Shown here one piece after another: positions 2,843 through 49,423 of a stretch of DNA of 64,000 nt; position 1 is the first letter of the stretch; each line of letters starts with the position of its first letter. The translations under genes and the position numbers were made by a program. This stretch comes from Escherichia phage vB_EcoM_CRJP21, in sequence record OQ708376.1. One strand, 5' to 3'. A model generated the notes under the pieces. That model searched no databases. It was not told the DNA's origin and saw only the letters and a program-made list of their open reading frames with translations.

Positions 2843-3631
2843 ATGAGCACTATAGATGAACTGATTCGACGGAATTCAAAATATTACCAACCATCAGAAA
2901 TTGTAGGTAACATTACCAAATCAGAGTTTGGTCCAAATACTCGAAAACTCATTCATGTAATGTCACGTGATGGCTTTAAATGTGATTGTTGCGGTGAATC
3001 TAATGTAGTATTCACTTTACACAAGCACAGTACTAAAGATCGTTATAAATTCAGACCTTATGTACTTAAAGGGAAACGCCTTGTACGCATGACGTTAGAC
3101 CATAATGTACTGGACTGTCTTCAGGGCGGTAATGATAAAGAGAACATGACTGCACTGTGTGAAGATTGTAACGCATTACGCCAGCATAAGTTTGCTGAAT
3201 ACAGTGAGTTTAAACACTGGTATAATAACGCGGATCGTTCAATCGAGCCTGACGTTAACTACTGCTTCATTGAGTACATTAAGAATGCCAAAGATACATA
3301 CATTCTTAAATCAATGTCACCTATTACCGTGTTTCCTGAGAACCTATTCACTACATTAAAGAATAGTTTTATTGTAGGTGATATTGATGCATTCAAGTAT
3401 TTTGACAAAGGTGCAAAACATTTTGAAATTCAATGTCTTAGTACTGCACTATGTGAACTCATTAAAATTTACATAAAAGAGTATTTGGGTATTGACAATG
3501 TACGTGTACCAGAGTATACTTTTTCTATTGAATTCGATTGTGAATCAATCAAAGAGTTTGGAATTCTTTTCAATAAACAAATAGAACTTGCAATTCAAAA
3601 CGAAATCAAGTACTATACTACTAACATTTAA
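2843..3631 (+). CDS. HNH endonuclease domain protein
   Basis: HNH-like motif TLDHNVLDCLQGGNDKENMTALCEDCN plus upstream CDCCGE cysteine pair; free-standing, not inside another gene. Confidence 0.6.
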   Translation: MSTIDELIRRNSKYYQPSEIVGNITKSEFGPNTRKLIHVMSRDGFKCDCCGESNVVFTLHKHSTKDRYKFRPYVLKGKRLVRMTLDHNVLDCLQGGNDKENMTALCEDCNALRQHKFAEYSEFKHWYNNADRSIEPDVNYCFIEYIKNAKDTYILKSMSPITVFPENLFTTLKNSFIVGDIDAFKYFDKGAKHFEIQCLSTALCELIKIYIKEYLGIDNVRVPEYTFSIEFDCESIKEFGILFNKQIELAIQNEIKYYTTNI

Positions 3632-3646
3632 TCAGAGGAAATTATC

Positions 3647-3829
3647 ATGCAAATTATCATTCTTATCGTTGGCATCATGCTGGGTGTTTACGGTCACTCC
3701 TGGATGAACGAGAAGTTTCCTAATACGCGTCCTGAGTATTGCAGTTCTAATGTATTCCAGAATGGTGAGAAACCAAAGGAAAGCATTGGTAAAAAGCTGG
3801 ATAAAGTACTTGATGTGATCAATGAATAA
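3647..3829 (+). CDS. small membrane protein (60 aa)
   Basis: GAGGA RBS; N-terminal hydrophobic helix IIILIVGIMLGVY. Confidence 0.45.
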   Translation: MQIIILIVGIMLGVYGHSWMNEKFPNTRPEYCSSNVFQNGEKPKESIGKKLDKVLDVINE

Positions 3830-3839
3830 GGGCCATAAA

Positions 3840-4040
3840 ATGTTTAAACCGAATTCCAATGTTGGTAAGAAAGTTCAATTACTTGAAGATGTATCCACCA
3901 TGAGTGGAATTTTCCCAAGAGGTCACATCATGACTATTATTGCCGAAACATCCCGTGGGTGGGATTTGGAAGATGCTGATGGTAATCGCATCCTTGAGGC
4001 TGGATTCTATGGTCATCGTGAATATAAAATCGTTGATTAA
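3840..4040 (+). CDS. hypothetical protein
   Basis: ORF in track 3822-4040; ATG at 3840 has better RBS spacing (AAGGG N7 ATG). Confidence 0.45.
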   Translation: MFKPNSNVGKKVQLLEDVSTMSGIFPRGHIMTIIAETSRGWDLEDADGNRILEAGFYGHREYKIVD

Positions 4041-4136
4041 GGATACAACATGACTTTAGAGATTGTCTTTGGTATTGTTAGCTTAGTCGTCTGTGTGGGT
4101 TGGTTTGGGTATCTGATGATTTTTAGTGATTAATAC

Positions 4137-4165
4137 TTGACATAAGATATCAGTACTGTATAATG
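4137..4165 (+). promoter_or_regulatory. sigma-70-type promoter TTGACA-N17-TGTATAAT
   Basis: consensus -35 and extended -10 with AGTACTG immediately upstream of -10. Confidence 0.6.
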
Positions 4166-4209
4166 TTTATATCAAACGAAATCCACTTTAACAAATGATA
4201 GGAAATATT

Positions 4210-4488
4210 ATGTCTTTTTCTAAAGAAGAACGTGACCTTATTAAAAAAGCAATCTGGTTTTATGCTAATGAAGGGAAGTGCGATGAAGAAAAAGCACGTG
4301 AACTGTGTAATATCTTTGAGAAGAAACAAGATCTAAAAGTGTATCGTATCCGTGATTTGGATGAAGGGGATCGTATTGTCCTAGCTGAAACAAAAGAAGA
4401 AGCAGAACAAATCTTCACTGATAAAAACGAAAATCCACATTGGATGGAAGAAGTCTGTGATGTTAAAAAAGGTACTTATATCGATTGA
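4210..4488 (+). CDS. hypothetical protein (92 aa)
   Basis: ORF downstream of promoter 4137-4165; ATG at 4210 preceded by AGGAAA. Confidence 0.5.
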   Translation: MSFSKEERDLIKKAIWFYANEGKCDEEKARELCNIFEKKQDLKVYRIRDLDEGDRIVLAETKEEAEQIFTDKNENPHWMEEVCDVKKGTYID

Positions 4489-4513
4489 CAGTACTGAATA
4501 ATAGCAGTATTAT
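4485..4513 (+). promoter_or_regulatory. promoter TTGACA-N17-TATTAT
   Basis: sigma-70-like hexamers overlapping 3' end of upstream ORF. Confidence 0.5.
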
Positions 4514-4526
4514 GTTTTATATAAAA

Positions 4527-4586
4527 GGGAATGCAGTGAAAGGAAAGACAGCATAATCGTACTCGTCACTGCGTTCCCGCCCTTTT
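4527..4586 (+). other. long imperfect hairpin (13 bp arms GGGAATGCAGTGA / TCACTGCGTTCCC) followed by T-run, in 5' leader
   Basis: inverted repeat read directly; lies between promoter 4485-4513 and gene 4608. Confidence 0.5.
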
Positions 4587-4607
4587 AAATTAAATGAGGA
4601 ATTAACT

Positions 4608-4916
4608 ATGTTTCAAACTAACACTCAAGGTTTTGTAATCATCGATTTGAATCAAAACAGCGGTCATTGGATGAAACCTACTGACGCATGTATGCAGTTT
4701 GATTTCTTAGGTTACAAAATTAGTGTAAGTACTGGTGCTTCTGTACTGAGAGGTGGTTGTATCGTTGAACATCTGGTAACTGATCCAGAAGGTCGTGAGT
4801 ATGAAATCGCAGGTTCAGTACAAGATGCCATTATGTTTGTATGTCAGCGTGAAATGAATGGTTCGAATTCAAATGCACTGACTCATGCTCTTTCTCAAGA
4901 AGTGGAGGTTCGTTAA
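4608..4916 (+). CDS. hypothetical protein (102 aa)
   Basis: ORF with GAGGA RBS. Confidence 0.55.
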   Translation: MFQTNTQGFVIIDLNQNSGHWMKPTDACMQFDFLGYKISVSTGASVLRGGCIVEHLVTDPEGREYEIAGSVQDAIMFVCQREMNGSNSNALTHALSQEVEVR

Positions 4917-5161
4917 TGAAATACATTGTAGCAGTACTCGTCGCATTTCTACTCACTGCATGTGATGCTTCTACCAAAGAACGTACAAGTGATTTTGTTC
5001 TACCTGCTGAATTAAAAGAAGCAGGGTGTAAGATTTATCGTATGCAACAAGATGGTGCTGGTGCGACTTTATACACTGTGTACTGTCCTAATGCAAATAC
5101 AAGTACTGGATACACTAGCGGTAAAACACGAATCAACACTTCCGTAATTCATGGAGAATAA
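4916..5161 (+). CDS. putative lipoprotein (signal peptide with lipobox LTAC)
   Basis: N-terminus MKYIVAVLVAFLLTAC; ATGA overlap with upstream gene. Confidence 0.55.
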   Translation: MKYIVAVLVAFLLTACDASTKERTSDFVLPAELKEAGCKIYRMQQDGAGATLYTVYCPNANTSTGYTSGKTRINTSVIHGE

Positions 5162-5163
5162 CA

Positions 5164-5532
5164 ATGAGCCTTGATACAACACGTGCAGCAGATTTATTAA
5201 CTCGTCTGAATGATGAAGAATATCTTGCTGAGATAAAGTACAAGCTTGACAAACTTGTTCGAAGTGCTGAAGTAATTGAAGTTGAAGGTCACTTACCGAT
5301 GGATCAATACCATAGGTTCAAGGAAGATATGGTTTATTATCCTAATGAAATTTGGATTGAGTGGCAACATTGGACTAACAAAACTCTTCGCATTGAAGGG
5401 TATTGTGTGAAGTATGAAAGTTCACCTGGTGATGTTACAAAAACTCTATCAATTTGGTGTACAAAAACAAATGAACTCGTTGAGGTGAATTTGAATTATA
5501 TGAATGGATTCCGTTGGGGTGATGTTAAATGA
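5164..5532 (+). CDS. hypothetical protein (122 aa)
   Basis: ORF, tight packing. Confidence 0.5.
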   Translation: MSLDTTRAADLLTRLNDEEYLAEIKYKLDKLVRSAEVIEVEGHLPMDQYHRFKEDMVYYPNEIWIEWQHWTNKTLRIEGYCVKYESSPGDVTKTLSIWCTKTNELVEVNLNYMNGFRWGDVK

Positions 5533-5804
5533 TTAAAAAACTCTTGACTGGAATCATTGTGTGCAGTACAATGTTTCTTACAGCATGTAATGATGACGGC
5601 AGGTTTAGTGCAAAAGACTTAGTTCGTCAGGATTGTACATTCACAGGTAAGTCTTTTATTAACGAGTATGAAATATGTACACAATCAGGTCGTATCTGTG
5701 GTGGTTGGGAAAAACGTCAGGAGCGATTGTATGTATATGAATGCCCTGGACATCACAACAAAGTACTAAGCACACACAAACTTGTTTATGATAAGGTTGA
5801 ATAA
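5529..5804 (+). CDS. putative lipoprotein (lipobox LTAC)
   Basis: N-terminus MIKKLLTGIIVCSTMFLTAC; several Cys downstream. Confidence 0.55.
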   Translation: MIKKLLTGIIVCSTMFLTACNDDGRFSAKDLVRQDCTFTGKSFINEYEICTQSGRICGGWEKRQERLYVYECPGHHNKVLSTHKLVYDKVE

Positions 5805-6019
5805 TGACTACCAATGAAATGATGCAGGTTATTTGGGATAAAGGTTGTGATATTAAAATCACTAGTACTGATGTTCGTGTATTCAAAACTGAATATATGG
5901 AGTACTTGGACCTTGATACTTATAATAATATTGTATCAATTGAACACAAAGGTGCAGTACTGGAAACCATTGACGTAGTACTCAAGAAAGCTACCGACCT
6001 ATTAGGAGTGGCAGTGTGA
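5804..6019 (+). CDS. hypothetical protein (71 aa)
   Basis: ORF, start overlaps upstream stop. Confidence 0.45.
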   Translation: MTTNEMMQVIWDKGCDIKITSTDVRVFKTEYMEYLDLDTYNNIVSIEHKGAVLETIDVVLKKATDLLGVAV

Positions 6020-49123: not shown

Positions 49124-49423
49124 ATGAAAATTGCAATCATCGCCCTGGCTTTATCTGTTTCCTCTTTCGCTGTTAATGCGTCATTAGATGTAAGTAGTGA
49201 AAAATTCATTCAGTGCACTGTTGCAATGACCGATGAAAGAACTGGCGAGATTGTATTAAAGGATTTAGAGATCCAGCCGGAAGCATTTAAAAACGGCCCG
49301 TTCCATGAAGAAGACGAAAACGGTAGCACGACAATTTATTATGATGCCAGTACTAAACGCGGTTCGGTCACTGTAATGGATACCGAGAAAGTAACTCATA
49401 CCGGCGTTATTAATTGCCGTTGA
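49124..49423 (+). CDS. secreted protein (signal peptide)
   Basis: N-terminus MKIAIIALALSVSSFAVNAS. Confidence 0.55.
   Translation: MKIAIIALALSVSSFAVNASLDVSSEKFIQCTVAMTDERTGEIVLKDLEIQPEAFKNGPFHEEDENGSTTIYYDASTKRGSVTVMDTEKVTHTGVINCR

Follow-up and report, generated by a model that had tools for sequence, protein, structure and literature searches.

The window, i.e. the whole stretch of 64,000 nucleotides that was analysed, is 99.7% identical to vB_Eco_slurp01 and, judged by its sequence, comes from an Asteriusvirus jumbo coliphage of the ~350-kb class. The region of interest is the leader between two early ORFans of the + strand, each with its own promoter (Table 1). Searches with the protein families of both genes matched only PHROGs of unknown function. 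A 241-nt stretch at the locus is 100% identical in three other Asteriusvirus genomes, and variation in the leader was followed across 16 related genomes; the genomes compared with the window are 93-100% identical. No transcriptome of Asteriusvirus or of a RaK2-like coliphage was found in the literature search.

Table 1. Features of the locus around the leader of gene 4608 (positions in the window)
Feature	Positions	Strand	Remarks
Upstream sister promoter	4137-4164	+	TTGACA-N16-TATAAT, 12/12; drives gene 4210-4488
Upstream early ORFan, phrog_24324	4210-4488	+	stop codon overlaps the -35 of the 4485 promoter
Sigma-70-type early promoter	4485-4513	+	TTGACA-N17-TATTAT, 11/12 to consensus
-35 TTGACA	4485-4490	+	overlaps the TGA stop of the upstream gene (4486-4488)
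-10 TATTAT	4508-4513	+	TATAAT in 121Q-type genomes
Predicted transcription start	4519-4521	+	6-8 nt past the -10, from the usual sigma-70 spacing
Hairpin 5' arm, GGGAATGCAGTGA	4527-4539	+	invariant in 16 genomes; starts 13 nt past the -10
Hairpin loop, 26 nt	4540-4565	+	invariant in 16 genomes; holds most of the core
Core, ACAGCATAATCGTACTCGTC	4548-4567	+	common to the hairpin and RaK2 pseudo-tRNA gt006
Hairpin 3' arm, TCACTGCGTTCCC	4566-4578	+	variable only at 4572, 4576 and 4578
Tail, GCCCTTTTAAATTAAAT	4579-4595	+	between hairpin and Shine-Dalgarno; variable, no conserved U-tract
GCCCTTTT	4579-4586	+	directly 3' of the hairpin
Shine-Dalgarno, GAGG	4596-4599	+	8 nt before the ATG at 4608
Downstream early ORFan, phrog_26720, 102 aa	4608-4916	+	unknown function

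The promoter that a first-pass annotation had placed upstream of gene 4608 lies exactly where it was reported, is near-consensus and is conserved in relatives; its 17-nt spacer includes CAGTACTG. Promoters matching at least 11 of the 12 consensus positions number 40 in the window (34 of them on the + strand) against 4.5 in shuffled sequences, and the family to which this one belongs is about 9-fold over-represented. The call is thus well supported, by the near-consensus boxes, the over-represented family, the conservation and the recombination joints that fall inside the promoter in related genomes (see below). Sigma-70 promoters usually start transcription 6-8 nt past the -10, and this spacing was used to place the start site in Table 1. 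The order hairpin, GCCCTTTT, ribosome binding site and gene 4608, also given by the first-pass annotation, was recovered in full. The ribosome_binding_site annotated in UE-S1 (locus 756-759) falls on the same GAGG or within one base of it. The tail aligns with the A/T-rich sequences that precede the ribosome binding site in the leaders of RaK2 and K64-1. Its U-run motif recurs in paralogous leaders of RaK2 and K64-1; as a widespread motif before ribosome binding sites in the window it gave weak matches only and was discarded.

The inverted repeat with 13-bp arms that had been described after the promoter is present (GGGAATGCAGTGA and TCACTGCGTTCCC), and the distance of "about 15 nt" became 13 nt past the -10 when measured. 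Its description as imperfect holds for the DNA, which has one G-T pair, and not for the RNA, in which all 13 positions pair, including one G-U (T4532-G4573) and 7 G-C pairs. The 96-nt leader folds with a dG of -26.8 kcal/mol compared to -13.9 +/- 3.0 in dinucleotide shuffles (z = -4.4), and none of the 200 shuffles was as good. Stems of at least 13 bp that include no more than one G-U and enclose a loop of at most 30 nt were found at 5 loci on the + strand of the 64-kb window (8 hits when overlapping registers are counted, against a shuffle mean of ~1.2), so that one such hairpin per 64 kb is unremarkable in itself. The remarkable part is its placement 13 nt past a strong -10.

The element is single-copy in each genome. 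With up to 3 mismatches allowed, the window contains neither another copy of the loop core nor its complement, and the core had no match in E. coli genomes. In IMG/VR an exact-motif scan hit 121Q and RaK2 only, together with unrelated contigs in which the match is most likely coding sequence; the same scan of metagenomes returned identical Asteriusvirus contigs and one RaK2-like contig. A family of human-gut contigs matching the core was set aside as unrelated, having no hairpin and a match at the level expected by chance for 19 specified bases. Rfam 15 gave zero matches over the whole window at gathering thresholds, and nothing meaningful for the leader at E values up to 10: the PyrD leader (16 bits vs 47 needed) and the DUF2815 RNA (15 vs 41) were at chance level, and miRNA matches were far below the Rfam thresholds.

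By alignment, the hairpin core was shown to be homologous to the interior of gt006, an element of RaK2 annotated as tRNA-OTHER, pseudo. The hairpin together with the following GCCC scores 40 against gt006 (shuffles 12.6 +/- 2.2, z = 12.6), and the whole leader, including promoter, ribosome binding site and first codons, is colinear with the RaK2 arrangement promoter-gt006-RBS-ORF254. The loop core is identical at 19 of 20 positions between the two phage genera, the arms differing, and TGCGTTCC of the 3' arm aligns with TGCATTCC of the gt006 T-loop region. gt006 itself is homologous to an element of Erwinia phage Hallingskeid (score 30 vs 13.3 +/- 2.3, z = 7.3) that is unannotated there, sits between a promoter and a homologue of gene 4608, and reaches 37.1 bits on the Rfam tRNA model (RF00005; gathering score 29 bits). 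RaK2 gt007 reaches 30.4 bits on this model and, like the Hallingskeid element, has an enlarged anticodon loop. Direct comparison of the hairpin with the Hallingskeid element was not significant, and gt006 is recognised by neither ARAGORN nor the Rfam tRNA model. The tRNA ancestry is one of transitive homology. ARAGORN found no tRNA in the window or at the relatives' loci (nor did it detect the elements of Hallingskeid and gt007, both above the Rfam threshold), and the tRNA model gave no match on 4480-4620 even at E = 10.

On homology and synteny together, the hairpin thus appears to descend from a tRNA-like element. Like the degenerate tRNA or tRNA-like genes of RaK2-like phages (gt006, gt007, Hallingskeid), it precedes a small ORF and lies 11-13 nt past the -10 of a homologous early promoter; in RaK2 and K64-1 the tRNA-like elements start 11-12 nt past the -10. 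Unlike the gt006-type elements, it has no acceptor 5' strand, D-arm or T-stem and forms a single 52-nt hairpin that fails the tRNA model. In Klebsiella phages the same promoter is followed by such elements in several variously truncated forms, and in K64-1, Muenster and KP13-7 a second, independent 13-bp hairpin with a large loop is found after a promoter.

Among the related genomes, the three variants of the hairpin (4572, 4576 and 4578) are all C to T changes. As each converts a G-C into a G-U pair, pairing is kept only in the + strand RNA. Three pairing-preserving transitions are not significant alone (we estimate ~0.16 by chance). Variable sites are fewer in the hairpin (3 of 52) than in the non-coding flanks (10 of 48; Fisher p = 0.036). 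The stretch from the hairpin to the ATG has 7 variable sites in 29 nt compared to none in the 39 nt of the 5' arm and loop, and the tail is the most variable stretch of all. However, in the first third of gene 4608 only 3 of 34 third-codon positions vary, a diversity as low as that of the hairpin. Purifying selection on the hairpin was consequently downgraded, since its low diversity may reflect a regional trough rather than selection on structure.

The upstream side of the locus has been rearranged repeatedly. Depending on the Asteriusvirus genome, gene 4210-4488 is present, absent or replaced. In Ecwhy_1, CMSTMSU, fEgEco12 and ph0011 it is missing, and a hybrid promoter takes its -35 and spacer from the 4137 promoter and its -10 and leader from the 4485 promoter. 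In Turkey5 the upstream gene is a different one. Three different upstream contexts were thus observed, with joints inside the promoter and with the -10, the hairpin and gene 4608 intact, showing that the hairpin stays linked to gene 4608 through promoter-mediated cassette shuffling. RaK2 ORF253, the homologue of gene 4210-4488, likewise ends before the homologous promoter. Within Asteriusvirus, gene 4608 is always found with the hairpin leader. It has homologues in RaK2 and K64-1 (67% identity), in XaC1, in Hallingskeid and on one IMG/VR contig; in the IMG/VR relative a hairpin lies over the -10, and in XaC1 there is none. These homologues with other leaders indicate that the hairpin is dispensable for expression of the gene 4608 family.

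Of the 40 strong promoters of the window, 8 are followed by a stem of 8 bp or more whose start lies 9-14 nt past the -10; at random positions the share is 2.9% (Fisher p = 3.6e-4 at a 7-bp cut-off). The GC hairpins of the seven other promoters, which include GGGGAGAA/TTCTCCCC, GAGGGGGA/TTCCCCTC and GGGGATGA/TCATCCCT, differ in sequence, keep their pairing and are not followed by a U-tract. Taken over all strong promoters in the window, stable folding downstream shows no general enrichment (Mann-Whitney p = 0.43).

Other known systems also come close to this arrangement. In the promoter-early stem-loops (PeSL) of T4-type phages, the stem-loop is located before the promoter boxes, between them or over them, and it terminates upstream transcription (Arbiol et al. 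2010, PMC2839356; Comeau et al. 2014, PMC4122927). The present locus shares with them a strong sigma-70-like early promoter, a stem-loop, a Shine-Dalgarno before a small ORFan and a location in a hyperplastic region, as well as recombination between neighbouring promoters that deletes or swaps an ORFan (here gene 4210-4488, lost in four aligned genomes). It departs from them in the position of the stem-loop, 13 nt downstream of the -10 and within what the promoter itself transcribes. The loop of 26 nt and the lack of a proper U-tract are further differences. Elsewhere in the window there are 11 true PeSL-like composites, AAAGGG-TTGACTTCGGTCAG-CCCTTTTT-N-TATAAT.

Another such system is that of the 5'-terminal stem-loops of ompA type, which reportedly act as stabilisers of E. 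coli mRNAs (work attributed to Emory, Bouvet and Belasco, 1992). Here too a stable hairpin near the predicted 5' end of the transcript is followed by the ribosome binding site, and hairpins recur at several promoters at a similar distance from the -10. The stem begins ~5-7 nt past the predicted start and 13 nt past the -10, the latter within the range of 9-14 nt observed for the seven other promoters. In E. coli stabiliser hairpins the optimum single-stranded 5' segment reported for protection is shorter than ~5-7 nt. The predicted unpaired segment of the leader therefore exceeds this optimum.

The explanation that we favour, at about even confidence, is that 4485-4607 is a promoter followed by a read-through 5' leader whose hairpin comes from a decayed tRNA-like element and is not a terminator. 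Host sigma-70 RNA polymerase would start ~6 nt upstream of the hairpin and read through into gene 4608. The hairpin would be an internally deleted descendant of a tRNA-like element of the type found directly after early promoters of related jumbo phages; a long stem would now close what it retains, an anticodon-arm-like core and a portion of the T-loop. It would form the first structured element of the transcribed mRNA, and would also be intercistronic in read-through transcripts from the 4137 promoter. In either position, 5'-proximal or intercistronic, such a stem-loop may slow ribonuclease attack or mark a processing site while leaving transcription unstopped. A short RNA is possible, freed by processing and not by termination.

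The first-pass annotation had called the hairpin terminator-like and suggested attenuation, a claim that found no support. In its most specific form it would have the hairpin and CCCUUUU halt a fraction of the polymerases, giving a ~65-nt transcript and insulating gene 4608 from read-through of the 4137 promoter. We consider this improbable. The locus does resemble Rho-independent terminators and attenuators in having a GC-clamped, stable stem followed by UUUU ahead of a gene, and stem-loops of PeSL type do terminate (PMC2839356). However, the loop of 26 nt compares to ~3-8 nt in intrinsic terminators, whose U-tract should hold at least 5 U in 8 positions starting 0-2 nt past the stem; here GCCC comes first and only four U's follow, 5 nt past the stem. 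The d'Aubenton-Carafa-type score is -66. In a shifted register, with GGG (4527-4529) paired to CCC (4580-4582), the U-run would follow the stem immediately and AAAA (4523-4526) could pair with the U-run as in bidirectional terminators, but this register scores -28, is 2.8-6.9 kcal/mol weaker, and its CCC and U-run vary among relatives. Six of the 7 variable sites between hairpin and ATG lie in 4579-4596, and the U-run is interrupted in UE-S1 and shortened in CMSTMSU, the tail of ph0011 being altered as well. The shifted register is also the sole alternative pairing, no antiterminator being evident, and no plausible leader peptide was found in the 4485-4607 leader, in contrast to leader attenuators. 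A scan with the terminator consensus over 3500-6000 found nothing. The phage's own terminators are quite different in form: 11 canonical AAAGGG-TTGACTTCGGTCAG-CCCTTTTT units were found in the window, upstream of or overlapping a promoter and never downstream of one. Of these terminator-promoter composites, 7 score +1 to +19, and the 10 whose tail was scored correctly have a tail score (nT) of 3.0-5.0 compared to 0.43 for the hairpin. Moreover, a terminator 3' of its own promoter would silence gene 4608.

Rather unlikely, in our view, is that the hairpin is functionless, a neutral relic left by internal deletions in a decaying tRNA-like gene; it would then persist because Asteriusvirus genomes are young relatives. 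Its homology to a pseudo-tRNA, the close identity of the compared genomes, the equally low diversity of the adjoining 5' coding region, the relatives of gene 4608 that do without the structure and the variously truncated Klebsiella versions are all consistent with such a relic. The 6-bp outer extension GGGAAT/GTTCCC is harder to reconcile with it, as it has no counterpart in RaK2 and is unlikely to have arisen or persisted by chance. The uninterrupted 13-bp stem with its low folding energy, the gap in variability between the tail and the 5' arm and loop, and the independent, similarly built hairpin of K64-1, Muenster and KP13-7 also argue against mere decay. RNase P acts on minihelix and 4.5S substrates. 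The 13-bp helix, roughly as long as an acceptor stem stacked on a T stem and having G1-C72 and a 3' GCC, might be a processed tRNA-like minihelix. RNase P would recognise 4526/4527 and RNase E possibly cut the A/U-rich tail, leaving a stable ~55-nt RNA, whose conserved loop might bind a protein or serve as a decoy, and a 5'-monophosphate mRNA. The tRNA-like ancestry, the first base of the hairpin at the same position relative to the -10 as that of the tRNA-like elements, the pair G4527-C4578 followed by G-C-C, and the conserved loop core between differing arms all fit this picture. It is nevertheless quite improbable: the 3' GCC varies among relatives (AACC in UE-S1, GTAC in ph0011), the tRNA model does not match, and the identity of the loop core is hardly above the ~80% of neighbouring homologous DNA (a loose estimate for 20 of 21 identical positions gives p about 0.06). 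The core also has no complementary target in the window at up to 3 mismatches and no E. coli homologue. Most improbable is an element acting as DNA, such as a cruciform or a protein-binding palindrome in recombination or replication. The region is indeed a hot spot of cassette rearrangement, but the joints lie inside the promoter and not in the hairpin, the G-T pair and the three further G-T variants are mismatches in DNA and in the - strand, and a single copy is found in each genome.

Beyond the preferred reading of a read-through leader, we put forward as a long shot that the structured RNAs found ~9-14 nt past the early promoters of RaK2-like jumbo phages are one functional class, of which the 4527-4578 hairpin is a working minimal version. 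This class may span tRNA-like elements with enlarged anticodon loops, 13-bp large-loop "minihelices" and short GC hairpins. It could provide a processing signal for RNase P or RNase E, similar to tRNA punctuation, by which the 5' ends of early mRNAs and their stability are set. Its members could instead be tRNA mimics, decoys for host defences that target tRNAs.

The result is a modest one, correcting a plausible-looking terminator or attenuator call. It also carries a warning for annotation, as a hairpin after a promoter followed by a few T's is not a terminator in these genomes, where the real terminators have a distinct and recognisable form. The hairpin leader is an ordinary but tidy example of how early-gene leaders are built and reshuffled: in a 350-kb phage, shuffled promoter cassettes and tRNA-like elements in decay supply the leaders of early ORFans. 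Should such promoter-proximal structures be processed or control the stability of mRNA, they would help in understanding, and in engineering, early expression in jumbo coliphages that are candidates for therapy.

The promoter TTGACA-N17-TATTAT, the inverted repeat with 13-bp arms, GCCCTTTT and the RBS that the first-pass annotation had placed ahead of gene 4608 are all present (see the table). As RNA, the hairpin comprises 13 consecutive pairs, one of them G-U, and a loop of 26 nt. Its stem starts 13 nt after the -10, a distance that is 12 nt in 121Q-type genomes. The folding energy of the leader is -26.8 kcal/mol compared with -13.9 +/- 3.0 for shuffled sequences (z = -4.4). Since stems of such length occur at five + strand loci of the window (8 hits against a mean of about 1.2 in shuffles, both counted with overlapping registers), this hairpin is notable for its location and not for its mere existence. 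The region is an early, "hyperplastic" part of the genome, a series of small + strand ORFans with many sigma-70-type promoters ahead of them; the window contains 40 strong promoters (at least 11/12) versus 4.5 in shuffles. The 1.8 kb around the hairpin share 99.7% identity with Escherichia phage vB_Eco_slurp01 and 92-99% identity with about 30 other Asteriusvirus jumbo phages (PBECO4, 121Q, phAPEC6 etc.; ~350 kb). RaK2 and K64-1, Alcyoneusvirus phages of Klebsiella, are more distant relatives.

Coordinates of the promoter, the hairpin and related features (window positions unless a locus, L, in another sequence is given)
Feature	Position	Strand	Comment
-35 TTGACA	4485-4490	+	17-nt spacer to -10
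-10 TATTAT	4508-4513	+	promoter matches consensus at 11/12
Hairpin 5' arm GGGAATGCAGTGA	4527-4539	+	pairs with 4566-4578
Hairpin 3' arm TCACTGCGTTCCC	4566-4578	+	pairs with 4527-4539
GCCCTTTT		+	directly 3' of hairpin, before GAGG
GAGG	4596-4599	+
ATG of gene 4608	4608	+
Terminator-promoter composites	10224, 13467, 13650, 16312, 20807, 22089, 24047, 52968, 56995, 60265, 62523	+	AAAAGGG-TTGACTTCGGTCAG-CCCTTTTT-GC-TATAAT
Other strong promoters with GC-rich hairpins	19038, 53525, 56261, 57571, 57840, 60693, 62217	+
CCCAynGGGTG elements	47037, 53023, 54689, 57045, 60320, 62573	+
CCCAynGGGTG elements	48637, 47105, 45167, 44950	-
AGTACT examples	4490-4497, 4152-4159, ~53070, ~57100, ~60370
Presence/absence polymorphism of gene 4210-4488	4137-4513; L001 720-775
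Gene 4608 chimera regions	4608-4640; L002 (RaK2) 1707-1730 and 2785-2850
Hallingskeid tRNA-like element	L035 582-664 = PQ464590.1 ~49276-49358	reverse	unannotated
Second "minihelix" leader, GACGGGGTGATAA...TTATCATCCCGTC	L019 1390-1518 (K64-1); also L020, L021
Gut metagenome contigs with ACAGCATAATCGTACTCGTC	L036, L037, L039, L040, L043-L047

The hairpin had also been called terminator-like, a description that its sequence does not support. A consensus scan of 3500-6000 returned none, and the d'Aubenton-Carafa formula, applied with modern folding energies, gives a score of -66. A shifted register (GGG 4527-4529 with CCC 4580-4582) scores -28 and is weaker than the plain 13-bp stem by 2.8-6.9 kcal/mol, according to whether AAAA/UUUU pairing occurs. 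The supposed U-tract falls within 4579-4596, the stretch of the leader that varies most across 16 aligned Asteriusvirus genomes (AACCTATT-AATT in UE-S1, GTACTTTT in ph0011, one T fewer in CMSTMSU). The phage's own terminators, AAA(A)GGG-TTGACTTCGGTCAG-CCC-TTTTT, are readily recognisable by a short GC-clamped stem, a UUCG loop, an upstream A-tract and a U-tract immediately after. Seven of the 11 copies in the window score +1 to +19. They carry the -35 of the next promoter inside the stem and the U-tract inside that promoter's spacer, and none of the 11 is placed downstream of its own promoter.

These 11 composites show, in a RaK2-like jumbo phage, the design of the "promoter-early stem-loop" (PeSL) cassettes of T4-type phages, whose stem-loop precedes or overlaps the promoter boxes and ends upstream transcription (PMC2839356; PMC4122927). 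The hairpin ahead of gene 4608 lies inside a PeSL-like shuffling cassette but has neither the PeSL placement nor the features of a terminator. Three upstream contexts are found among Asteriusvirus genomes: gene 4210-4488 is present, or deleted with a hybrid promoter left behind (Ecwhy_1, CMSTMSU, fEgEco12 and ph0011), or a different upstream gene is found (Turkey5). In all of them homology restarts within the promoter, and the -10, the hairpin and gene 4608 are intact. The 4137 and 4485 promoters form a 348-bp direct repeat, which recombined in the four genomes with the deletion into a single promoter with the -35 and spacer of the former and the -10 and leader of the latter; five further genomes, outside the alignment, give the same truncated match. 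From these comparisons, the hairpin is part of the transcript of the downstream gene and the promoters are recombination joints, as in the PeSL model. Gene 4608 itself seems to be a chimera when set against RaK2: the RBS and first codons (MFQTNT) are similar to the ORF254 start (MFTPNT), and the remainder is homologous to ORF257. RaK2 ORF257 has an N-terminus 18 aa longer and an internal NxNxQGFVI duplication, and the ~1.2 kb between the ORF254 start and ORF257 (three ORFs, a promoter and two tRNA-like elements) are absent from the window.

Within the 16-genome alignment, three of the 52 hairpin positions vary (4572, 4576 and 4578), all by C to T changes in the 3' arm, each of which replaces G-C pairing by G-U. 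No position of the 5' arm or loop varies (0/39), and 10/48 do in the non-coding flanks (hairpin versus flanks, Fisher p = 0.036). In gene 4608, 32/102 third-codon positions vary, but only 3/34 in its first third, which is as quiet as the hairpin and indicates a regional trough in variation. The pattern resembles that of a + strand RNA structure under constraint, with the caveats of this trough and of a probability of ~0.16, by our estimate, that three pairing-preserving transitions arise by chance. Between the two genera the loop core is 19/20 identical versus ~80% for neighbouring homologous DNA, a marginal excess. Leaders of other kinds precede further gene-4608 relatives (in an IMG/VR jumbo-phage contig a hairpin overlaps the -10, and XaC1 has no structure), so that the gene family does not require the hairpin. 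The 20-nt loop core ACAGCATAATCGTACTCGTC has an exact copy in one unrelated human-gut contig family, where it is not part of a hairpin; for 19 specified bases in a very large collection, such a match is compatible with chance.

RaK2 ORF253, homologous to the upstream gene, has the same ending and is likewise followed by a homologous promoter. Next to this promoter, immediately downstream, lies gt006, annotated by the depositors as an 87-nt "tRNA-OTHER" pseudogene, and promoter, gt006, RBS and first ORF254 codons are colinear with the leader of the window. The hairpin interior (GCAGTGAAAGGAAAGACAGCATAATCGTACTCGTC, 4533-4567) aligns to gt006 GCAGCG--AGCAAACACAGCATAATGGTACTCGTC with a local score of 40 versus 12.6 +/- 2.2 for shuffles (z = 12.6), and the 3'-arm TGCGTTCC aligns to its T-loop region TGCATTCC; the acceptor 5' strand, D-arm and T-stem of gt006 are missing from the hairpin. 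Neither ARAGORN nor the Rfam tRNA model calls gt006. It is homologous, through acceptor, D-arm and anticodon arm (z = 7.3), to an element of Erwinia phage Hallingskeid whose Rfam tRNA score is 37.1 bits (gathering score 29) and whose "anticodon loop" measures 16 nt; ARAGORN does not call that element either. This element sits between a promoter and the gene-4608 homologue (ORF 692-955, + strand, in L035); the small opposite-strand CDSs annotated over both in PQ464590.1 are probably mis-annotations. A second RaK2 element, gt007, follows the next promoter and scores 30.4 bits on Rfam tRNA. In K64-1, Muenster and KP13-7 the same promoter is followed by a truncated gt007 lacking the D-arm, and another promoter by a hairpin built in the same way as that of the window (13 bp, one G-U, replaced by A-U in KP13-7, and a 38-nt loop, then TTTCCTTTTT and an RBS). 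In this phage group, then, the first positions of early transcripts are taken by tRNA-like elements at various stages of decay, and the hairpin of the window is among the most reduced. It descends from such elements, but its tRNA ancestry is transitive, via gt006 and the Hallingskeid element: it does not match the tRNA model and, compared directly with the Hallingskeid element, gives no significant score. No Rfam family matches it and no E. coli homologue was found. A third, unannotated tRNA-like sequence (acceptor GCGGGTG/CACCCGC; T-arm GACAG-TTCGATT-CTGTC) lies just upstream of the gene-4608 homologue in RaK2 (L002 2600-2700) and K64-1 (L019 ~1720-1810), and is absent from the Rfam hits down to a cut-off of E = 1.

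The hairpins at seven other strong promoters are of 8-9 bp and start 9-14 nt after the -10 (arms GGGGAGAA/TTCTCCCC, GAGGGGGA/TTCCCCTC and GGGGATGA/TCATCCCT, for example), a position equivalent to that of the RaK2 tRNA-like elements (11-12 nt). Their sequences diverge with pairing kept; ACUAAC...GAGAG and the start codon come next, and a U-tract is lacking. Including the 4485 promoter, 8/40 strong promoters have such a hairpin versus 2.9% of random positions (stems of 8 bp or more; Fisher p = 3.6e-4 with a 7-bp cut-off). Promoter-proximal hairpins that are read through thus recur as a design in this phage. Ten promoter-proximal elements of the window share a CCCAynGGGTG core inside a longer stem (e.g. 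GAGAGATAGCTCACTAGCCCACAGGGTGCAGGAGTGTATCT), each a few tens of nt downstream of a -10; they have no Rfam match and are a candidate family of repeated leaders or small RNAs. The palindrome AGTACT, which may be a regulator or modification site, occurs 280 times in the 64 kb (~22 expected from base composition), and CAGTACTG 59 times (0.7 expected). It is often found just upstream of a -10 (cAGTACTGTATAAT) or directly after a -35 (TTGACAGTACTG), and also paired, flanking A/T-rich spacers (CAGTACTGAAAACTATTTTTAAAAAGTACTTGCA).

Hairpins at the 5' end are known to stabilise E. coli mRNAs. From the promoter geometry, host RNA polymerase would start ~6 nt ahead of the stem, transcribe the hairpin and go on into gene 4608. 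The structure would form at the 5' end of the gene-4608 mRNA and also between the two genes on transcripts that begin at the 4137 promoter and read through. By analogy with the E. coli stabilisers, it would work like a 5' leader hairpin, most plausibly hindering ribonuclease entry or marking a processing site, and we give this reading as a whole about an even chance. That the hairpin is a functionless relic is unlikely, although a serious contender, and partial termination is quite improbable. RNase P-type processing of a tRNA-like minihelix, releasing a small RNA, would fit the length of the helix, the G1-C72 pair and the 3' GCC, but the last of these is not conserved and we regard such processing as improbable too, if anything slightly more so. 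A role at the DNA level is very improbable.

The hairpin adds a member to already known kinds of element. Taken alone its interest is otherwise low, and a single reading would raise it, namely that the tRNA-like, minihelix and hairpin elements found close to promoters in these phages make up a functional class, for processing or as decoys, which we consider improbable.
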